Positions 5,054-53,821 are shown, counted from the first letter of the stretch. The stretch is 64,000 nucleotides of DNA from Candidatus Eiseniibacteriota bacterium (GCA_965223205.1 OZ244990.1:2864170-2928169), one strand, 5' to 3'. The notes: a model not told the origin generated them from the sequence alone. Numbers and translations: made by a program.

Positions 5054-6253
5054 GTGCCACGCCATCTGGCCCTCATGGATGTGACACCCGCCAAGCGCGG
5101 GTCTTTTGAGAACTACGCCGTCGAACTCGCGGCGCGGCTGGAACGGGCTGGCTGGGAGTCGGTCTTGGCGTTTTGGGGGCCGCCACCTGCATGGTTGCGC
5201 GAGGCGCTCGAGGCACACGGTGCCGAGGTGCGCATCCTCACCGACGAACCCGAGTTTGGCGGTCGCCGCGACTGGCCGGAGAGCTTTGGGCGCGATCGGC
5301 GGCTCGCCCAAGTGGCCTGGCGCTACGCCCGCCAAGCGCCACCCGATGTCGTCCACCTCCACTTCTGCGTGGTCTTCTCGCCGCTCCCCTGGGTCTTGCG
5401 CCTGGCGGGGGCGCGGCACATTGTTTTCACTGAGCACATCTCATTGCCGATGGCCGAACGGCATGGGCTTCGGAGTCTGGCGGCGCGGATCAGAAATGGT
5501 GCGTGCATGCGCGCCATGGATCGCGCCTTGGCCGTCTCCGGGTACGTCAAGGAGCGCTTGGTTCGCTCGGATTTCCTGCCCGCCGACAAGGTCGAAGTAC
5601 TCTACAACGGCATCGACTTGCGCCGTTTTCGCGCCGTGCAAAGCGACCCCGCCGCCGTGCGCCGGGGGTTGGGCATCCCGCCGGCGGCGCCGCTCATCCT
5701 TTCGATCGGTCAGCTCATTGAGTTCAAGGGGATGCACGTGTTGATCGATGCCTTGGCCCGCATGGAGGATGCTGGTGTGCACGCGCTTATTGTCGGTGAG
5801 GGGCCTGAAGACGACCGCCTAGCCCGCGACATCGAACACCGGGGACTCGCCAACCGCGTCCAACTTCTCGGCCGCCGGGACGACATTGCCGAGTTGTTGC
5901 ACGCCGCCGACCTCTTCGTCCTGCCATCGGTCTGGAACGAGGCGCTCGGTTACGTCATCGTCGAAGCCATGGCCAGCGGTAAGGCAGTGGTCGCCACCCG
6001 CGTCGGCGGCATCCCCGAGGTTGTCGAGGACGGGGTGACCGGCGTTCTGGTGGAACCGGGGAACGCCGCCCTCCTGGCCCTAGCCGCCGAGAGCCTGCTC
6101 CGAGACCCCGAGCGCTTGGGGCGGCTGGGCGCGCACGGTCGCCAAGTGGCTGAATCCACCTTCGCCCTCGAGGCGGCGATCGAGCGCACTATGGCCATCT
6201 ATCACGAGTTGGCCGGCGGGCCTGAGTTGGAAGTCGCCCGCCGTGCCGGCTAG
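5054..6253 (+). CDS. Glycosyltransferase family 4 (GT-B fold)
   Basis: C-terminal EALGYVIVEAMASGKAVVATRVGGIPEVVEDGVTGVLVEP motif typical of GT4/GT1 retaining glycosyltransferases. GTG start directly after the upstream stop. Confidence 0.8.
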   Translation: MPRHLALMDVTPAKRGSFENYAVELAARLERAGWESVLAFWGPPPAWLREALEAHGAEVRILTDEPEFGGRRDWPESFGRDRRLAQVAWRYARQAPPDVVHLHFCVVFSPLPWVLRLAGARHIVFTEHISLPMAERHGLRSLAARIRNGACMRAMDRALAVSGYVKERLVRSDFLPADKVEVLYNGIDLRRFRAVQSDPAAVRRGLGIPPAAPLILSIGQLIEFKGMHVLIDALARMEDAGVHALIVGEGPEDDRLARDIEHRGLANRVQLLGRRDDIAELLHAADLFVLPSVWNEALGYVIVEAMASGKAVVATRVGGIPEVVEDGVTGVLVEPGNAALLALAAESLLRDPERLGRLGAHGRQVAESTFALEAAIERTMAIYHELAGGPELEVARRAG

Positions 6254-6275
6254 GGTTGGGTGGCGCCGAGCGCCG

Positions 6276-7652
6276 TCAGGGTGCGCTAGCCACCTGGGTT
6301 TGAGCCTGCCCTTCGAGGCGCTCCAAACGCTCCGCCAACGCCAGACACGTCGCTTGGAGTACGGCGATCTCGGCGTTCTTTTCGGCGCGTAGCTCTTTGA
6401 GCGCTTCGATCAACACCGGGCCGAGCTTCGAGTAGTCCATCCCCACCGCATCGGCGCCGTTCTCTTCGTAGCTGACGATTTCAGGAAGGATCTCCCCGGT
6501 TTCCTCGGCGATCATGCCGAGGTCCGGCTGGCCGCCGTGCTCGGCGTCCCAATCGAAGGTAACGCCCCTGAGCGCCAAGACTTTGTCGAGCGCGTCCTCG
6601 ATCGGTGTGATGTTGTGCTTCCAGCGCCTCGACGACGCCGCGCCGTAGTTCACCCCCACTCCATCGGCGTAGAAGTCGAAGCCCGTGGAGGTACTAGCCC
6701 GCCCGCGGACGCCCACTGGCGAACCCGAATTGCTCGTTGCCCAGCCGACGACGCCGGTGCCGGTGGGGCTCGAGGTCTTGCCCGTGACGCCGGTGCCGGC
6801 GCCCGATCCTTCGTGGTGGGCGATCAGTCCAAGCCCCTGCGGCGCGTAGGACTCGGCTTGAATGCCCGTACTGTCCTCGGAACGGGCGTAAATGGCGAGG
6901 CCCCCGGCGGAATTTTCGAACCGGGCTGCACGTGGCCGATCCGACCTCACGTCGAGCTGCGAGAGCAGGTCCGGTGACATCGTGCCAATCCCGACCGACT
7001 GCTGGTTGGTGACCGTCAGCGCGACTCCCTCATTGAAGAGGTGCCAGTCCTTGGTAGAACCGTCGTAGTAGTGCCAGGCGTTGGTCTCGCCCCCGGTCGA
7101 GTAGCCGTAGAACGGCGACGCGTTTTGCCCCAGGGTACTCATGTACATGCCGGCGTAGCCCGAGGTGGTGGTGGAGTGCACGCCAAAGCGTTCCGAGCCG
7201 ATCGAGTAGTCGCGGCCGATGCCGAGGAAATCACCGTCGTCGTTGACAAAGATTCCGCGCGTTGCGGCCGAGTAGGGGGTGGGCGAGACCTGTTGGCGTG
7301 GGTCCACTGCCGTCCAAAAGCTGGTCGAGGAGCGCACCAAGATTCTAAGCCAGCGCTCCTCACCAAGCGCAAAAGCATCGGTCCCGAAATCAAGCGTCAC
7401 GGTGAATCGGCCGTCTTGTACGTGCACTCCTAACAGCTCGACGTCAGCAGCGACGGGCAAGCCGCCGGTGGCTCCAGCGTAGAGGCTGAAATGAAAGTCA
7501 TACGCCCCGTTCGCCAGGGTGCCGCTATCTTTGAGTTCACCCTGATAGGTGAAGGCTGCATCGTTCTGGCCCAAAGCAAGGCTCTCGGTGCTCACCAGCA
7601 TGATGATGGCGAGAGCTGCCCGGGAGCCGAAACATCGGTCTAGGCGTGTCAT
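6276..7652 (-). CDS. Secreted glycine-rich protein with C-terminal intramolecular-chaperone (peptidase S74 / endosialidase-chaperone-like) domain; tail-fibre-like
   Basis: Signal peptide; N-terminal TFTYQGEL..DG..YDF module; Gly-rich repeats; C-terminal SSRRWKHNITPIE...LALRGVTFDWD...GMIAEE...PEIV...DYSKL.PVLIEALKEL followed by a coiled coil. This is the layout of the self-cleaving chaperone domain of phage tail fibres and tailspikes. Confidence 0.75.
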   Translation of the reverse strand: MTRLDRCFGSRAALAIIMLVSTESLALGQNDAAFTYQGELKDSGTLANGAYDFHFSLYAGATGGLPVAADVELLGVHVQDGRFTVTLDFGTDAFALGEERWLRILVRSSTSFWTAVDPRQQVSPTPYSAATRGIFVNDDGDFLGIGRDYSIGSERFGVHSTTTSGYAGMYMSTLGQNASPFYGYSTGGETNAWHYYDGSTKDWHLFNEGVALTVTNQQSVGIGTMSPDLLSQLDVRSDRPRAARFENSAGGLAIYARSEDSTGIQAESYAPQGLGLIAHHEGSGAGTGVTGKTSSPTGTGVVGWATSNSGSPVGVRGRASTSTGFDFYADGVGVNYGAASSRRWKHNITPIEDALDKVLALRGVTFDWDAEHGGQPDLGMIAEETGEILPEIVSYEENGADAVGMDYSKLGPVLIEALKELRAEKNAEIAVLQATCLALAERLERLEGQAQTQVASAP

Positions 7653-7663
7653 AGCTGGGTCTC

Positions 7664-9046
7664 CTACTGTTCTGGCGCGTACGCCGCCAGCTTGCCCTGG
7701 AGGGCGGCGACCTGCGCGTCCCTCGCGGCCTCAAGTGCGCTCAACTGCTGAGCCATGCGTTCGTTTTGGGCGATGAGGGCCTTGACTGCCTCGACCAAGA
7801 GCGGCGTCAATCGGGAGTAATCCATGCCAATTGCGTCGACGCCGTTCTCTTCATAGGCAACGATTTCGGGCAGCACTTCGCCGGTTTCCTCGGCAATCAT
7901 GCCGATGTCGTGGTGACCGCCGTGTTCTTCGTCCCAGTCAAAGGTGACGCCGCGCAGCGCCAGAACCTTCTCGAGCGGCTCCTCGATGGGCTCGACGTTC
8001 CGCTTCCAGCGCCTGGACGAAGTCGAGCCGTAGTCGGTGCCCGCTCCACTGGCAAAAAAGTCGTAGCCCGCTGGACTGACGCAGATCCCTTTCACTCCGA
8101 CCGGCGAGCCGGTTTGAGCGCGGGCCCGACCGAGCACGCCCGTCCCGGTGGCGCTGAACGCGTCCCCAAAGACCCCATGGCTACCTCCCGCGGTCGAGGT
8201 GGAGAGCGCCACCCCCCATACTCCCTTGCCCCCGGACGCGTGGCTTTCCCCGACCACGCCAAAGCCCACGCCGGAGCTGTTGGTGGCTTCGCCGAAGATG
8301 CCCTTGCCACCGAGGGTCGCGTTGGAGACCACCATGGCGTACTCGGTTCCCGAGCTGGGCAGGTGGAATGGGTAGCTGGGGCTAGAGGTCCTGACCCCGA
8401 CGAACCCGCCGTCGGTCACCGTTAGATGGGTCCCCGAGTTGTAGAGATGCCATTTGCTGGTTGTCCCATCGAAGTAGTGATAGGCGTCGACGTCTGCGCC
8501 GGCGGCGTAGCCGTAGAAGGGCCTGGCGCCTTGGCCGGTGGTGCTCGCATACATGCCGCCGAAGCCGTTCGCAACGTCCGAGTGGATGCCGAAGCGTTCA
8601 GCGCCGGTGATCGGATCAGTTCTGCCGATCCCGACGAAGGTGTTCAAAGCGTTGACCGACAAGCCGCGCGTGGCGACCGAGTAGGGTGCGCGGGTGATCG
8701 GCTGGCGCGGGCTGAGGGTGGTGAAGCCCCCGACGCCAGCCGGATAGCGCACCCTGATTTCAAGCCAGCGGTCGCTACCCGGAAACGCCGCCGGGCCAAA
8801 GTCGACGGACACGGTGAAGCGGCCGTCTTGGACCGGGACGTTCGAGTTGGAGTCGGCGCCCAGGTTGTTGCCGCCGGCCGCCGCGTCATAGAGCACCAGC
8901 TCCACGTCACACAGCCCGTCGGCTGGCGTGCCGGTGTCGGTCAGCTCGCCCTGGTAGGTAAAGGTTGTCTCGTTGCCGTGGGCGCTCCAGGCGCCGAGGC
9001 CCAGCCACAGCACTGTCGTTAGAATTTGGCGTTTCATGGTCTGCAC
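7664..9046 (-). CDS. Paralog of 6276..7652: secreted glycine-rich protein with C-terminal intramolecular-chaperone (S74-like) domain
   Basis: Same N-terminal module (TFTYQGELTDTGTPADG), Gly-rich centre and C-terminal SSRRWKRNVEPIE...LALRGVTFDWD...GMIAEETGEVLPEIV...DYSRLTPLLVEAVKAL domain. 11-nt spacing to its tandem partner. Confidence 0.75.
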   Translation of the reverse strand: MQTMKRQILTTVLWLGLGAWSAHGNETTFTYQGELTDTGTPADGLCDVELVLYDAAAGGNNLGADSNSNVPVQDGRFTVSVDFGPAAFPGSDRWLEIRVRYPAGVGGFTTLSPRQPITRAPYSVATRGLSVNALNTFVGIGRTDPITGAERFGIHSDVANGFGGMYASTTGQGARPFYGYAAGADVDAYHYFDGTTSKWHLYNSGTHLTVTDGGFVGVRTSSPSYPFHLPSSGTEYAMVVSNATLGGKGIFGEATNSSGVGFGVVGESHASGGKGVWGVALSTSTAGGSHGVFGDAFSATGTGVLGRARAQTGSPVGVKGICVSPAGYDFFASGAGTDYGSTSSRRWKRNVEPIEEPLEKVLALRGVTFDWDEEHGGHHDIGMIAEETGEVLPEIVAYEENGVDAIGMDYSRLTPLLVEAVKALIAQNERMAQQLSALEAARDAQVAALQGKLAAYAPEQ

Positions 9047-9217
9047 CTCGCAATCCAGTTGGGTAAAGGGTGGGCCCTTCTACGACTGGAGCCGCAAACC
9101 CATCTGGAAACCCGCCAGGCATGCGGCGAAGAGCCCTAACATCCGCGATGACCGGTAGTTGGATCGGAAGGGCGAGCTAGTCGGAGCGGACGGGCGGTGC
9201 GCCGCCGGAATCCGGAC

Positions 9218-41762: not shown

Positions 41763-41940
41763 GTGGGGCAAAACCCTCCCCTGCGGGGGGCCGTCCTCGA
41801 GCTTTGGCGCGCTTTTGACCCTTCGCTGCCCGGCCAGCGGCTACCATGGTGCTCGAACTTGTAGGGTGGCAGCGTCTACCCTAAGCCGATATAGTTGCCC
41901 GGGTTCCACGATTGACCTTAATGGGTGCTGAGGAGTGAGC

Positions 41941-42081
41941 ATGTTGAAGTGGTTGAGCGCCATTGCCCTGGTGGCGTCCCTCGGAATGCAGGGGGACGCC
42001 CGCGCCGAACGCTCGGAGGAAGTCGAGCTGCTGATCATCAGTTCCGCCTCCAATCGCGGCGAAGTCGATCCCTGCGGGTGA
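41941..42081 (+). other. Signal-peptide-encoding 5' segment, in frame with the downstream cytochrome ORF and terminated by a single in-frame TGA (42079-42081)
   Basis: GGAG 5 nt upstream of the ATG at 41941. Encodes MLKWLSAIALVASLGMQGDARA|ERSEEVELLIISSASNRGEVDPCG then TGA. Same frame as 42145..43293, with no other stop in between. Confidence 0.5.
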
Positions 42082-42144: not shown

Positions 42145-43293
42145 GTGGATGACCAACTCCTGCTCGTAGACGGCGGCGACTACACCCATCCCAACATGAC
42201 CAAGGACGACCGCTTGAACTGGTTTGTCCTGGAGGCCATGGGGCGGATGGGCTACGACGCCATGACCTTGGGCGAGCTCGAGTTGTACCGCGGTGCCGAG
42301 TACGTCGAACGCATTCTTGCCGAGAGTCAGGTACCGGTGGCCTTGGCCAACGTTTTCTTCGCTGACACCGGCGAGCGGGTAGGTGCCGAGACGGTCGTCG
42401 TCGACAAGAGCGGCGTCAAGATCGGCATTCTCGGCCTCATGGGTCAGGACTTTGGTGAGGGCGTTGCCAAGTTTGAGGGGCTCGGTTTCCGCATCGACGA
42501 TCCGTTCGAAGTGGCTGCCAAAGTGGTGCCCGAACTCAGCTCCCAGGTCGACGTGGTAGTTGTCCTGTCCCATGCACCCTCGGCTGACACCTTCCAGCTG
42601 CCCAAGCAGGTGAACGGCATCGACCTTCTGGTTTTCGGGCACTACCCGGGCACCGTGGCCGCGACGCAGGTCGACGGTGCTGTGACCATCCGCTCGGGCC
42701 AGCGCGGCCAGCACATCGCCGAGACCCGCGTGGTGATCAACCCGGAAAACGAAGTGGTGACATACGAGGGCAAGGCGACAGCGTTGCTTATCGATACTTT
42801 CTGCGAGGACCCGACCCTGGCAGAGGAGCTCACCTCGCTCAAAGACGATGTCGAGGCCGACCAGCGCAAGTCGCAGCTTGAGGAGGAGATTCGCAGCCAG
42901 TCCTCCAAGTTGGTCTTGGGCCAGGACCACTTCATGGGCGATGCCAAGTGCTCCCGCTGCCACGCCGACATTTACAGCCATTGGCAGGAAACACCGCACG
43001 CCCGCGCCTTTCAGACGCTGGTCGACGATCAGGCGGCTGAGAACTCCGAGTGCCTCAAGTGCCACGTCACCGGTTTTCAGCTAGCCGGGGGCTTTCAGGG
43101 AGTGGGTGCCGACGCGGATATGCGCAACGTCCAGTGCGAGGCGTGTCACGACATGGGTACCCGCCACAACATGATCGACGCCAAGCCGGTGGGCGAAGTC
43201 GCCTGCCTGGGGTGTCACGACCAGGAGAACAGCCCGGCGTTCGACTTCGAGTCCTACTGGGCTGAGATCGCCCACCCCAAACCAAGCGATTAG
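42145..43293 (+). CDS. Calcineurin-like/5'-nucleotidase-like (degenerate metallophosphatase) domain fused to a C-terminal tetrahaem c-type cytochrome; ORF as given. The biological gene probably begins at 41941 if the TGA is read through.
   Basis: Four CxxCH haem-binding motifs (CSRCH, CLKCH, CEACH, CLGCH) in the last 120 aa; N-terminal LLLVDGGDY...GELELYRG resembles metallophosphatase motifs II/III. The GTG start at 42145 has no ribosome-binding site and no signal peptide. Confidence 0.7.
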   Translation: MDDQLLLVDGGDYTHPNMTKDDRLNWFVLEAMGRMGYDAMTLGELELYRGAEYVERILAESQVPVALANVFFADTGERVGAETVVVDKSGVKIGILGLMGQDFGEGVAKFEGLGFRIDDPFEVAAKVVPELSSQVDVVVVLSHAPSADTFQLPKQVNGIDLLVFGHYPGTVAATQVDGAVTIRSGQRGQHIAETRVVINPENEVVTYEGKATALLIDTFCEDPTLAEELTSLKDDVEADQRKSQLEEEIRSQSSKLVLGQDHFMGDAKCSRCHADIYSHWQETPHARAFQTLVDDQAAENSECLKCHVTGFQLAGGFQGVGADADMRNVQCEACHDMGTRHNMIDAKPVGEVACLGCHDQENSPAFDFESYWAEIAHPKPSD

Positions 43294-46051: not shown

Positions 46052-47755
46052 GTGCACGTCTGGGTCATCCAAACAGACCGCCGCCTTGGTCTCCTGGTGG
46101 CTCTACTCATCGCTGCGACCTTCTCTGCGGCGTGTCGCGTCAAGCCGCCGGCCGATCCCGTCCAAGCACCCAGCCGGCTCCACGGCGGCGTCTTTCGCTA
46201 CGCCGAGAGTTCCGACCTGCCGGCCCTGGATCCGGTGCGCTGCGACGACACGGCGTCCACCCATGCTGCGACGCAGCTCTACGAGGGCCTGGTAGCGCTG
46301 GGTGACGACCTCCAGCCCGAGCCGGCTTTGGCTGAGCGCTGGACGGTCTCGGCGGATGGCTTGGAGTGGCGTTTTCAGCTGCGCACCGACGCCTTCTATC
46401 ACGATGACCCGTGCTTTGCCGGCGGCCGCGGCCGGGCGCTGACCGCGGCCGATGTGAAGCTTAACTTCGAGCGCCTGTGCGATCCCGAGTCGGGGAGCAC
46501 CGGCTACTGGATTTTTGCCGGCAAGATCGCCGGTGCCGACGCCTTTCATCAGGGGCGAGCACCAGGAGTCCGTGGCTTCTCGGCGCCGAGTCCCGACGTT
46601 TTCGTCGTGCGACTCACCCGCCCATACGCGCCGCTCCTCCGACTGATGGCGATGCCCTATGCGCTGGTTGTCGCCCCCGAAGCGATCCAGCGCTACGGTG
46701 AGCGCCTGGATCGCCACCCGGTCGGCACCGGTCCGTTTCGGCTGGCCGCCTGGGCCGCGGGCGAAGGGCTGGAGATGGTACGTCACCCGCGCTACTGGGG
46801 AAGGGATGCCGACGGGCGCCAGCTGCCCTACCTGGATGGCGTTCAGGTCATTTTTGAGCCGGACGCAGCCCGCCAGGTGGCGCTTTTCGAGCGCGGCGCG
46901 TTGGAGCAACTCTATCCCATCCCGAGCGACTACTTCGCGGAGTTGGTAGTGCCCGAGGGCGGCGTTCGCACGGGAGTTGGCAACTTTGTGATTCAGTCGG
47001 CCCCCGAGTTGGACGTCCAGTATTACGGGATGCGCATGGACGCGCCGCCGTTTCAAGGAAACCGGGCGCTACGCCAGGCATTGAACTACGCGGTCGATCG
47101 CCGGGCGTTGGTGGACGAGGTGCTGCGCCGCGGCACTCCGGCGCACCACGGTGTGCTGCCGCCGGGCTTGCCCGGCTTCAACCCGGCGCTCGAGGGCTAC
47201 CGCTACGACCCGGAGCTGGCCCGCTCGCTGTTGACCGCGGCCGGCTACCCGGACGGACGAGGCCTTTCCGAGATGACGCTCGAAGTCAACGCCGGGGGCA
47301 CGGCCACCGTCGAGGTTGCCGAGGCGGTGGCCGCGCAGCTCGGGCGACTGGGCCTCCGCGTGCGCGTCGAAGCCCGGCCTTGGCCGGAGCACCTGCGGCG
47401 GGTCGAGGAAGGCGAAGCACCGTTGTTCCGCATGGCGTGGTTGGCCGACTACCCCGATCCCGAGAACTTCTTGGCGTTGTTTTACAGCGCTCACTGGGCA
47501 CCCCGTGGCCCTAACACCACCCACTACGCCAACCCTGCCTTCGACCGCCTGTTCGAGCAGGCGCTCTCCACGGCGGATACGGCGGCGCGCGATGCGCTCT
47601 ACCACCAAGCCGAGGCGCTGGTGGTCGAGGACGCGCCCTGGATTTTTCTCTTCCACGCCGAAAGCTACAGGCTCATCCAACCCTGGGTGCGGGGCTACCC
47701 CATCAACCCGCTCGACTACCGGGTTCTCAAGCGGGTTCGGCTTGCGCAGCCTTAG
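46052..47755 (+). CDS. ABC transporter substrate-binding protein, family 5 (Opp/Dpp-like), lipoprotein
   Basis: Lipoprotein-type signal (LIAATFSAAC) and SBP_bac_5-type motifs (HPVGTGPFRLAAW...RHPRYWG). No cognate permease or ATPase genes in the window. Confidence 0.8.
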   Translation: MHVWVIQTDRRLGLLVALLIAATFSAACRVKPPADPVQAPSRLHGGVFRYAESSDLPALDPVRCDDTASTHAATQLYEGLVALGDDLQPEPALAERWTVSADGLEWRFQLRTDAFYHDDPCFAGGRGRALTAADVKLNFERLCDPESGSTGYWIFAGKIAGADAFHQGRAPGVRGFSAPSPDVFVVRLTRPYAPLLRLMAMPYALVVAPEAIQRYGERLDRHPVGTGPFRLAAWAAGEGLEMVRHPRYWGRDADGRQLPYLDGVQVIFEPDAARQVALFERGALEQLYPIPSDYFAELVVPEGGVRTGVGNFVIQSAPELDVQYYGMRMDAPPFQGNRALRQALNYAVDRRALVDEVLRRGTPAHHGVLPPGLPGFNPALEGYRYDPELARSLLTAAGYPDGRGLSEMTLEVNAGGTATVEVAEAVAAQLGRLGLRVRVEARPWPEHLRRVEEGEAPLFRMAWLADYPDPENFLALFYSAHWAPRGPNTTHYANPAFDRLFEQALSTADTAARDALYHQAEALVVEDAPWIFLFHAESYRLIQPWVRGYPINPLDYRVLKRVRLAQP

Positions 47756-49340
47756 ATTCCCGGTTGTCGCCAGCGCGTTGTTCTTGCTCCTGGGCTTGCC
47801 GTTCTGGGAGTACCGCACGGACGACACCTACATCTTCCTGCGCTACGCCCAGAACTGGGCGGCCGGACTGGGGCCGGCGTTCAACCCGGGGGAGCCGACC
47901 TACGGGTTTTCCAGCCCGCTGTGGTTGGCCGCATTGACCGGTGCCGAGCGCCTCGGGATCGGCGGGCTGACCGCTGCCAAGGTCTTGGCGGTCGCTTGTG
48001 GGGTGGCTTCGGTCTGGGGCTTTTGGTGGTGGGCGCGGGCGTGGCTCCCGGCCAGCGCCGCCGGTTGGGTCACTTGTGCCTGGGCGGCGAACGGTTGGTT
48101 GGTGCGCTGGAGTGCGGCGGGGATGGAAACCGCCCTGATCTTGGCGTGGACGGTGTGGTGCTTGGCGCTCGACGCCCGGGCGTGGCAGCGCCGGGAGGTG
48201 AGTTGGGGGGCGGCGGTGTGCGCGGGCGCTGCCGCGTTGACGCGGCCGGAAGGAGCAATTCTCGCCGCCGTATTGTGCGTTGCCACCGTCTGGCGCGCCG
48301 GTTGGCGCCACGCCCTCGCCCAGGGTGTCATCGTCTCGCTCCTCGTCGTCCCTTGGCTCCTCTATGCGCAGTTCACCTTCGGCGGCTTCCTGCCGATTAC
48401 CGGCGCCGCCAAAGGGACGGTCGGTGTGGCGTGGGGGATCGACCCGCTCCGGGATGTGGCGCGGGCGGTGGCGGCGACCAGCTGTCTTGAAGTTCTATTG
48501 GCCGGCCTCGGCATCGGCTTGGCCCTGGGTGCTGACCGGCGTCCGCCCGGCTGGGGGACGGCGCTCGGTTGGCTCGGTGGTTTGATCCTCTTCTACAGCC
48601 TCACCGGCTTTGACGTCCTGTCGCGCTACGCCCTGCCGATCGTGCCCGTGGTCGTTGTTGCCGGCTTCTGGGAATTGGAGCGCTTGCCGGGTCGCTGGGC
48701 GCCGGGCGTTCTTCTCGCCTTGATGACCGTGTGGTGGGCGTGGGTCGGGGCGCAGGCCGAACTCAGCCCTAGGGTTTGGGGGATAGCGGCGGTGGCCACG
48801 GCAGCCGTGGTGGTGGGACTTCACCACCGGCTGTGGCCCAGGCGATTGGCACTCGCGGCGGCGCTCGTGGTCTTGGGGAATGCCGGTCTTTTGGCCAACG
48901 TCGTCTACCCGCACACCCACGCCTTCTCGCGCGGGGTGATCGACTGCTTCCAGGGGCTCGGTACGTGGTTCGCCGAACACACCGAGCCGGACGCCCAGGT
49001 GGCGATCGCTGATATCGGTGCTTTTGGCTACTATTCGAACCGCCGGGTCGTCGACATGGCGGGTCTCATTACCCCCCAGATGATTCCTTTGGTGGACGCC
49101 TACCCGATCGAGGACATCGCCCGCGGTCTCCTGTTCGAGGGTTTTGCCAGGCCGGCTTACTTGGTGGACCGGGCCGACCAACCGGAGCGGCTCCTGAACC
49201 ACCCGTCGGGGGCGTTCCAACCGTTCGACGGCTCGCCCTGCGCCATTCGGGGACTCGGCGTGCGCTCGCCTGCCACCATTTTCTACACCGCGTATCGGCT
49301 AGACTGGCCCCGCTTCGAGCGCTGGCGCGGCGGGCACTGA
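47742..49340 (+). CDS. Polytopic integral membrane protein, putative GT-C-type glycosyltransferase (ArnT/PMT-like); function uncertain
   Basis: About 12 predicted TM helices with a conserved-looking first loop (RTDDTYIFLRYAQNWAAGLGPAFNPGEPTYGFSSPLW). Start set at the first TTG after the upstream stop; TTG at 47778 is an alternative. The ORF-track start at 47316 is an in-frame extension. Confidence 0.6.
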   Translation: MRSLRFPVVASALFLLLGLPFWEYRTDDTYIFLRYAQNWAAGLGPAFNPGEPTYGFSSPLWLAALTGAERLGIGGLTAAKVLAVACGVASVWGFWWWARAWLPASAAGWVTCAWAANGWLVRWSAAGMETALILAWTVWCLALDARAWQRREVSWGAAVCAGAAALTRPEGAILAAVLCVATVWRAGWRHALAQGVIVSLLVVPWLLYAQFTFGGFLPITGAAKGTVGVAWGIDPLRDVARAVAATSCLEVLLAGLGIGLALGADRRPPGWGTALGWLGGLILFYSLTGFDVLSRYALPIVPVVVVAGFWELERLPGRWAPGVLLALMTVWWAWVGAQAELSPRVWGIAAVATAAVVVGLHHRLWPRRLALAAALVVLGNAGLLANVVYPHTHAFSRGVIDCFQGLGTWFAEHTEPDAQVAIADIGAFGYYSNRRVVDMAGLITPQMIPLVDAYPIEDIARGLLFEGFARPAYLVDRADQPERLLNHPSGAFQPFDGSPCAIRGLGVRSPATIFYTAYRLDWPRFERWRGGH

Positions 49341-50623: not shown

Positions 50624-51811
50624 GTGAGACGATCGCCTGCCAAGCGGTTGGGCTGGTGTGGTGCGGTGCTGGTGCTCTTCCCTCTCCTTGGGAACGTGCG
50701 ACCGGCGGCCGGGTTGCCGCTGTACGCTGTCCGCGAGCGGCTCTCGTGCAGCAGTTGCCACGTCGATCCCTCAGGGGGCGGGCCACGCAACGCCTACGGC
50801 TTTGACTACATGCTGGCGCGCCACGCCACCACTCCCGAGTTCAAGTGGCCCGAGTTGCCGGAGGCGCAGCCAGAGCTGGCGCCCGGACTCGCCGCCGGCG
50901 CCGACCTCCGGGCGATTTACGACGCCCGCAACGCCCGACACGTGGAGGGTTTCCCGGATCAAGCTTCGTCCTTCGTCCGCATGCAGAGCGCGCTCTACCT
51001 GACCTATGCGCCGCTCGAACCATTGGTCTTGGCTTTGAACGCCGACATCGACCAGGGACGTCTGGGTGGGCCCGAGTGGTTTGCCATGGGGCATCAACCC
51101 GACGGCCCACTCTATGTAAAGTTCGGTGCGTTCCGAGTTCCTTACGGCCTGAGGATGGACGACCACACCCTTTGGGTGCGCAACGATTGGGTGACCCACA
51201 CCCTCGCACCCCGCCGGTTCGAGCTGTTGGGACGCGGCGGCGATCCGCGTTTGCCCGACGTCGGCATCGAGCTGGGCGCTCAGCGCCGTCGCGCCTTTGC
51301 CCAACTGGCGCTCACCAACGGCGCCACCGGTGCTCTCGATATTGCCGACCGCAACTTGGCGGTCACCGCCCGCGCCGGTGGCGCTTTGCGCGACCTCTGG
51401 GGGGGAGTGACCACCCACCTCGACACCGACGGCGAGCCGGGCGCCGCCGGCGCCGTCCAAGTACGGCGCTACGGCGTCTTCGGTGGTGTCCGTGCCCACG
51501 GGCGCTGGGTCTTCCTGGGCGAGGCGTCGCTCGGCGAAGATCGGCCCCTCGGGACGCATACGATCCAACGGCTTATCGCTTCTTGGGCCGAAGCCGATTT
51601 TCTCTGGTCGCGCGGAGCGCGCGCCCGCTTCCGCTACGACTACGTCAACTCCGACCGTGACCTGGAGTTTGCCGCAGCCGAGCGCTACACGGCCGAAGTC
51701 GATTGGACGCCGACGCCGTTCACGACCCTGCGTTGGAGCTATCGGTTCACTTCCAGCGAGTTCGGACCGGATCTCGACGAGTTCGTGTTCCTGGGTCACT
51801 TCCACTTCTAG
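50624..51811 (+). CDS. Putative outer-membrane beta-barrel protein with an N-terminal CxxCH motif
   Basis: Signal peptide, CSSCH 12 residues into the predicted mature protein, alternating amphipathic strands, C-terminal ...LGHFHF (terminal aromatic typical of outer-membrane barrels). GTG start with GGAGG upstream. Confidence 0.65.
   Translation: MRRSPAKRLGWCGAVLVLFPLLGNVRPAAGLPLYAVRERLSCSSCHVDPSGGGPRNAYGFDYMLARHATTPEFKWPELPEAQPELAPGLAAGADLRAIYDARNARHVEGFPDQASSFVRMQSALYLTYAPLEPLVLALNADIDQGRLGGPEWFAMGHQPDGPLYVKFGAFRVPYGLRMDDHTLWVRNDWVTHTLAPRRFELLGRGGDPRLPDVGIELGAQRRRAFAQLALTNGATGALDIADRNLAVTARAGGALRDLWGGVTTHLDTDGEPGAAGAVQVRRYGVFGGVRAHGRWVFLGEASLGEDRPLGTHTIQRLIASWAEADFLWSRGARARFRYDYVNSDRDLEFAAAERYTAEVDWTPTPFTTLRWSYRFTSSEFGPDLDEFVFLGHFHF

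Positions 51812-53821
<2,010 letters not shown>

Follow-up and report, generated by a model that had tools for sequence, protein, structure and literature searches.

The fused cytochrome-porins called Cyc2 are said to fall into clusters 1-3 of McAllister 2020 and Keffer 2021, which reportedly include Acidithiobacillus ferrooxidans Cyc2, Mariprofundus ferrooxydans Cyc2PV-1 and Leptospirillum Cyt572. Cyc2 is the Fe(II) oxidase of Acidithiobacillus, Mariprofundus, Gallionellaceae and Leptospirillum, and is described as a protein of ~400 aa that is made with a signal peptide, carries a single CxxCH ~12 residues past the cleavage site and has a 16-strand barrel resembling OprP/OprO (Keffer et al. 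2021, PMC8406198). Its haem site has been haem-stained experimentally, and the sequence (A)XPXFAR[Q/K][T/Y] upstream of CXXCH has been called unique to Cyc2 and used as an inclusion filter, alongside PXL four residues downstream of CXXCH and either a Cyc2 BLAST match at E<=1e-5 or the FeGenie HMMs (PMC8406198). The Acidithiobacillus gene lies in a cyc2-cyc1-...-rus operon (PMC10654088). FeGenie has reported "Cyc2 homologs" in Eisenbacteria, Gemmatimonadota and Acidobacteriota MAGs (PMC9769843), and Cyc2 with the canonical motif also turned up in Gemmatimonadetes MAGs in our own degenerate-pattern DNA scan, so the concept of a fused cytochrome-porin is not new for these phyla.

Other outer-membrane barrels differ from Cyc2 in plan. 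OprP and OprO (PDB 2O4V, 4RJX) have no N-terminal cytochrome segment. MtrB, PioB and MtoB serve extracellular electron transfer, and some carry an N-terminal CxxC; they have ~26 strands, able to sheath a decahaem cytochrome, and their genes adjoin that of the periplasmic decahaem partner (MtrA, PioA or MtoA).

The gene and its CxxCH-bearing segment

P0001 is encoded in the window, by which we mean the whole 64-kb stretch of Candidatus Eiseniibacteriota DNA that was analysed. The open reading frame encodes 395 aa plus a stop, starts with GTG and has GGAG 6-11 nt 5′ of the start. Its features are as follows.

50624..51811, + strand: complete gene, very probably encoding a fused monohaem cytochrome-porin (sequence, gene neighbourhood)
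50624..50713, + strand: predicted signal peptide, residues 1-30 (sequence, family AxA statistics, step in AF2 pLDDT)
50714..50887, + strand: mini-cytochrome segment, residues 31-88 (most conserved block, alignment to the Cyc2 cytochrome, pLDDT 88-95)
50747..50761, + strand: CSSCH (C42, C45, H46), predicted covalent haem c site and proximal His ligand (all 175 full-length homologues)
50762..50788, + strand: family pocket motif x-[DN]-P-x-G-G-G-x-R, residues 47-55 (158-member alignment; 0/115 Cyc2)
50888..51808, + strand: 16-strand beta-barrel porin domain, residues 89-395 (AF2 model)
51125..51181, + strand: G-x-F-R-x-P-Y-G-L-R-M-D-D-H-T...R block, residues 168-186 (family alignment, strand map)
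51797..51808, + strand: C-terminal H-F-H-F, a terminal aromatic beta-signal with His392 at -4 (family alignment)

The N-terminus, MRRSPAKRLGWCGAVLVLFPLLGNVRPAAG followed across the predicted cleavage site by LPLYAVRERLSCSSCH, shows the three regions of a Sec signal: a basic n-region (RRSPAKR, with four K/R within residues 1-12), a hydrophobic core and a small-x-small site that places cleavage between AAG and L. This site is kept across the family, where the inferred -1 position is A, G, S or T in 149/151 members and -3 is A in 93/151, and AF2 pLDDT steps from below 50 over residues 1-30 to ~90 from residue 31. The signal peptide proposed in the sequence-only reading, which is also part of the Cyc2 definition, is thus borne out, and so is its claim that CSSCH begins twelve residues past the cleavage site: if the signal is cut after G30, Cys42 becomes mature residue 12. 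The length of 395 aa lies above the Cyc2 threshold of at least 365 aa.

CSSCH (residues 42-46) is the sole CxxCH of P0001, close to the N-terminus as in Cyc2, and contains the only two Cys of the mature chain. Could such a motif have arisen by accident in an ordinary porin, as the sequence-only reading had allowed? Single motifs do arise by chance in large proteomes, and any CxxCH appeared in 75 of 200,000 composition-preserving shuffles of P0001, a chance expectation of 3.75e-4. C42, C45 and H46 are, against this, invariant in 36/36 close homologues and in 158/158 and 127/127 divergent homologues (mean column identity 20%). CxxCH occurs in 175 of 184 fetched proteins, and the nine without it are apparently N-terminally truncated fragments. 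With the motif in 175/175 full-length homologues, at 23-58% identity and within the most conserved block of the family, chance is refuted, its probability being negligible; the CxxCH is more than an accident, and the Cys/His conservation that had been asked about is present.

This block reads A-x-P-[RLY]-[FY]-[AS]-x-R-x-G-x-x-CxxCH-x-[DN]-P-x-G-G-G-x-R across the family. In P0001 the mini-cytochrome segment comprises an LPLYAVRER helix, CSSCH, a VDPSGGGPRN pocket and a second helix (57-64). Pocket conservation is high (n=158: G51 and R55 100%, G53 97%, G52 92%, P49 85%), and a strict GGG-x-R pattern matches 130/158 family members vs 0/115 Cyc2. We note that a representative search also returned four dihaem variants (P0065, P0066, P0107, P0137), in which a first CxxCH follows P-x-F-A-x-R and a second stands ~25 residues on, before the NPxGGGxR pocket; two of the four are ~510 aa long and carry low-complexity inserts.

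A CxxCH may also hold Zn, Cu or Fe, or form a redox-active disulfide like the CxxC of MtrB-type barrels. Haem in P0001 is so far predicted from sequence, and no c-type maturation system was seen within the 64-kb window. A non-haem role nevertheless appears very improbable: the His directly after the second Cys is invariant, the flanks of the motif align to the haem-stained site of Cyc2 (PMC8406198), the P0001 barrel is not MtrB-like, and the window holds another c-type cytochrome, so that maturation machinery is expected in the genome. The haem-binding porin suggested by the sequence-only reading is judged right, with haem attachment predicted from the Cyc2-like architecture and the invariant CxxCH.

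Barrel fold and relationship to Cyc2

AF2 models of P0001 give a 16-strand barrel both with a 36-sequence alignment (pLDDT 74) and with 127 diverse sequences (residues 89-394, pLDDT 86.9, pTM 0.84), in agreement with the C-terminal 16-strand OprO/OprP-like porin of Cyc2. In the deep-alignment model the segment 31-88 has pLDDT 88-95, so its placement relative to the barrel is confident. P0001 ends in ...GHFHF, as had been read from the DNA, and the C-terminal residue is F or Y in 124/158 family members; together with the modelled barrel this points to an outer-membrane beta-barrel, and the soluble periplasmic alternative fails. P0001 is 15% identical to OprP/OprO and, unlike them, carries the N-terminal cytochrome segment; it gave no Pfam Porin_O_P match at E up to 10. 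The earlier analogy with the CxxC-bearing MtrB-type barrels does not survive: the P0001 barrel has 16 strands rather than ~26, and its gene adjoins those for PCMT and LigA instead of a decahaem cytochrome gene.

Two further conserved elements lie in the barrel. The block at residues 168-186 spans the end of strand 5 and the beginning of the long strand 5-6 loop, where classical 16-strand porins have their constriction loop L3, and is strongly conserved (n=158: G168 100%, G175 99%, R186 94%, D180 85%, H181 75%); its DDH is a candidate metal site in the lumen or haem contact. At the C-terminus, H392 is conserved in 91% of the family, with His at -4 in 144/158 members vs 0/93 Cyc2, and faces the lumen by strand alternation relative to the terminal aromatic. 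His392 is therefore a candidate distal haem ligand, and conservation would add M120 (75%) and H181 (75%) to the possible distal-ligand or metal-site residues.

For comparison with Cyc2 we scanned named genomes with a degenerate DNA pattern of the published signature, which yielded at least 115 ORFs from sources including Sideroxydans, Gallionella, Ferriphaselus sp. R-1, Mariprofundus micogutta ET2, Ghiorsea, Chlorobium sp. N1 and Nitrospira. The set is biased by construction towards FAR[QK][TY]/PxL forms of clusters 1 and 2, cluster 3 (the Acidithiobacillus type) being absent. An HMM built from 89 bona fide Cyc2 sequences served as a surrogate for the FeGenie HMMs.

The N-termini of this set read A-[VIL]-P-A-F-A-R-Q-T-G-M-A-C-S-A-C-H-F-Q-H-F-P-x-L-N-x-F-G-R. 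Upstream of the haem site the family keeps A-x-P-x-[FY]-A-..-T-G in register with Cyc2 (C-10 P, C-8 F/Y, C-7 A, C-4 T, C-3 G), and it shares with Cyc2 a signal peptide with a conserved motif beginning at the mature N-terminus, one CxxCH ~12 residues in, a length of ~365-450 aa, a 16-strand OprP/OprO-like barrel and, in some lineages, cupredoxin and c4-type cytochrome genes alongside. The differences are equally consistent. The family Arg is displaced by one position (FA-x-R vs FAR): literal PxFAR[QK][TY], which was selected for in the Cyc2 set, occurs in 0/158 members, P0001 reading G-L-P-L-Y-A-V-R-E-R, whereas the related form P-x-[FYLIMW]-[AGSTP]-x-[RKQE] occurs in 138/158. After CxxCH the sequences are entirely unlike, with x-[DN]-P-x-GGG-x-R in place of Cyc2 xxxx-PxL; PxL at +4, likewise selected for in the Cyc2 set, is present in 0/158 members, and P0001 reads CSSCH-VDPSGGGPRN. 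The GLRxDDH loop is conserved in the family and has no equivalent conservation in Cyc2.

Profile methods connect the two groups. The family HMM detects 86/89 bona fide Cyc2 sequences (best 42.7 bits, median 25), and the Cyc2 HMM detects 102/158 family members (best 35 bits, median 13.5) against a maximum of 6.8 bits for shuffled family sequences. Full-length hhalign of the family with the 89 Cyc2 gives a probability of 97.9% (E 6e-13) over 346 co-linear columns. The barrels alone reach 54.8% (E 1e-4), so homology of the porin half is not established independently of the haem segment. P0001 by itself scores 3.4 bits on the surrogate Cyc2 HMM, its best BLASTP match to any Cyc2 has E 0.005 in a 60-kb database, and 24/158 family members reach E 1e-5 against Cyc2 in that same database. 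As judged by these alignments, the two groups are genuinely but distantly related; most of the signal comes from the cytochrome segment, and single-sequence methods do not see it. Because both Cyc2 sequence signatures fail, P0001 is not filed as Cyc2; by the same comparisons, made mainly against clusters 1 and 2, it is placed in a distinct sister family with the predicted architecture of Cyc2.

This family appears to be undescribed, with invariant motifs of its own, no curated model and no functional name. P0001 matched no family in Pfam or NCBIfam at E up to 10, Porin_O_P and Cytochrom_C included; a PDB sequence search returned no relative with P0001 and nothing significant with the family profile, tblastn of plasmids gave no match, and we found no description of the family in the literature searched. 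A word-indexed search of 5.8 billion proteins recovered 36 relatives, all "hypothetical", and a profile search of that collection with a word prefilter gave 32 matches, adding taxa and no functional names. Exhaustive phmmer of 1.84 billion cluster representatives (50% identity) found 593 at E<=1e-3 and 204 at E<=1e-10. Every named copy is a "hypothetical protein", and there is no solved relative. The family spreads over Nitrospirota, Ignavibacteria, Gammaproteobacteria, Acidobacteriota, Eiseniibacteriota and Poribacteria, and the closest named homologue of P0001 comes from a Candidatus Eiseniibacteriota MAG. Most of the hosts with a name belong to groups presumed to be heterotrophic (Eiseniibacteriota, Terriglobales, Poribacteria) and are not known to oxidise iron. 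One member, P0042, is labelled Candidatus Limnocylindrales; if this is the Chloroflexota group, usually regarded as monoderm, a barrel in its host suggests mis-binning or a diderm envelope.

Gene neighbourhoods in the window and in relatives

The P0001 gene shares its strand with pcm (PCMT), which ends 45 bp before it, and with ligA, which starts 9 bp after it. Neither gap holds a site resembling a promoter or a convincing terminator, and transcription together with these housekeeping genes is probable. Other window genes are of similar character: MacAB-like efflux, pyrimidine synthesis, exopolysaccharide export, SerRS, AccD, LptD and a Tol-Pal-like cluster. No redox partner gene was found near the P0001 gene in the window, where this copy stands alone between pcm and ligA. 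P0008 and the LigA P0200 are each on a 4,368-bp ENA contig, and P0005 and the LigA P0204 are each on a 16,154-bp JGI contig; if the matching contigs are taken as the same, this suggests that the adjacency to ligA is kept in relatives 44-51% identical, which looks like inherited synteny rather than a functional link. The window LigA itself (51821-53821) has no match above 58% identity among 5.8 billion proteins, which places the host genome in a poorly sampled lineage.

The sequence-only reading had pointed to a multihaem cytochrome gene 8 kb upstream. That gene is present (42145..43293, + strand; four CxxCH; Pfam Cytochrome_C554, E 4e-15), 7.3-8.5 kb upstream of P0001, but a link between the two is unsupported and was rejected, since unrelated genes intervene and the arrangement is not conserved in homologue loci. 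Read from its first start, the cytochrome ORF lacks a signal peptide. One is encoded in the same frame by a 48-codon ORF (41935-42081), which ends ...EVDPCG at an in-frame TGA (42079-42081), downstream of which the frame continues ...KKSQKGGLARRA...VDDQLLLVDGGDY. The TGA could be selenocysteine (PCG-U), with read-through giving a secreted ~452-aa protein with a tetrahaem C-terminal domain; it could just as well mark a pseudogene or an error in the sequence. There is a hairpin 21 nt past the UGA, with a fold z-score of only -0.49.

Two further window loci drew our attention. Tandem ~460-aa paralogues at 6276-7652 and 7664-9046 (both - strand) both have a Peptidase_S74 (endosialidase chaperone) domain at the C-terminus and lie in a region that otherwise holds housekeeping genes, and a 674-aa ORF without a Pfam match at 47316-49340 (+ strand) overlaps the 3′ end of an SBP_bac_5 gene (46052-47755) by ~440 nt.

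At seven of 11 homologue loci examined, no cytochrome gene adjoins the family gene. Three distant members, at loci L131, L132 and L127, lie in redox operons with overlapping ORFs. In L131 (Nitrospirota MAG GCA_016180645.1) the order is Cupredoxin_1, a dihaem cytochrome c, a 141-aa lipoprotein and the family gene (6001-7116). A 497-aa Cyc2-type paralogue (IPAFARREKMPCHRCHDSWPRLNKFG...WEFAF; 7647-9140), which the Cyc2 HMM scores at 53 bits and the family HMM at 39, follows ~530 bp downstream, so both types co-occur in one locus. At L132 the family gene stands between genes for a blue-copper protein and a dihaem cytochrome c; after the latter come a NapC/NirT-type protein (five CxxCH) and another protein with seven such motifs. 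In L127 (Gammaproteobacteria MAG; 24 contigs that carry this family protein were read) a lipoprotein gene with one CxxCH overlaps the family gene by 4 bp. The same logic of arrangement is seen in the Acidithiobacillus cyc2-cyc1-...-rus operon. These operons tie the family, not directly the window copy, to periplasmic electron carriers.

At L130 a 289-aa secreted protein without a Pfam match (5123-5992), carrying CxxxCH (CVEGCH), is encoded 8 bp upstream of the family gene (6001-7101) and may be an unconventional haem or metal partner. L125 (Poribacteria MAG) and L126 have a ferritin gene two genes upstream of the family gene, and an epimerase-COX3 fusion with a COX4_pro gene ~4-5 kb upstream; this iron/oxidase association is weak and may be shared synteny of two related genomes.

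The setting of the window copy, with its probable co-transcription with housekeeping genes near LptD and Tol-Pal-like envelope genes, and the absence of redox partners at most loci would fit a haem that is no electron relay, acting as a structural plug, as a redox or gas sensor that gates a diffusion porin, or as part of a haem or iron uptake channel. Against such roles stand the remote homology to a proven oxidoreductase, Cyc2, the cupredoxin/cytochrome operons in three independent lineages, and the lack of a TonB-box, plug domain or uptake-system neighbours, and we regard them as quite improbable.

Proposed function and significance

Overall, the best explanation, which we favour with reasonable though far from full confidence, is that P0001 is an outer-membrane fused cytochrome-porin of a Cyc2 sister family that works in a Cyc2-like way. 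The fused architecture itself is very probable, and a role as electron conduit is rather likely. In the proposed scheme, P0001 would be exported by Sec and cleaved at about G30/L31, and would receive a single haem c on C42 and C45 with H46 as proximal ligand. The 58-residue haem segment would then pack against or inside the periplasmic mouth of the 16-strand OprP-like barrel (89-395). Because this segment is too short for a free-standing cytochrome fold, the barrel probably contributes residues from its periplasmic mouth that complete the haem pocket, as has been suggested for Cyc2. A small dissolved redox-active species, most probably Fe2+, could enter the narrow pore and give one electron to the haem, which would reduce a periplasmic carrier; in relatives this carrier may be the cupredoxin or c4-type dihaem cytochrome. 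Fe(II) as the substrate of P0001 is a default by analogy with Cyc2, which we hold tentatively and at less than even confidence.

The segment after CxxCH, without PxL, is such that axial ligation, redox potential and hence substrate could differ from those of Cyc2. The same fused architecture might then do another job: oxidation of another dissolved species such as Mn(II), a substrate already suggested for Cyc2 homologues (PMC9040806), export of electrons to outside acceptors such as Fe(III) or humics, or non-energetic Fe(II)/ROS detoxification in heterotrophs. A distinct haem pocket, possibly bis-His via H392, would set a different potential. The pocket unlike that of Cyc2, the family-specific His at -4, the DDH loop and hosts that are mostly not known iron oxidisers are consistent with this alternative, and the L131 family gene beside a Cyc2-type paralogue suggests non-redundant roles. 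On balance we consider it unlikely, though well short of negligible, as there is no positive sign of any one alternative substrate, Fe(II)-oxidising systems use partners of the same types (cupredoxin, c4-type cytochrome), and a ferritin gene lies near the family gene in two loci.

A broader reading, somewhat doubtful at present, is that the family forms a second, hitherto unrecognised lineage of fused cytochrome-porins, widespread in presumed heterotrophic phyla and overlooked by the Cyc2 motif and BLAST criteria, in which the haem is differently ligated (for example bis-His via His392) or the DDH loop forms a metal site, and in which potential, substrate or direction is unlike that of Cyc2. 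If so, the side-by-side pair in L131 would represent a division of labour between two outer-membrane redox gates.

Whether or not that broader reading holds, P0001, a "hypothetical protein" of the window, gains from its predicted architecture a confident functional class, and the invariant residues specific to its family offer a set of mutants for learning how a one-haem porin tunes substrate and potential. Cyc2 is the main genetic marker for inferring microbial iron oxidation from genomes and metagenomes. The P0001 family lacks both sequence signatures of Cyc2, and motif and BLAST filters would probably miss P0001. The family is large, shares the predicted fused design and has Cyc2-like partners in some lineages, which suggests an under-count of single-haem electron gates in the outer membrane.
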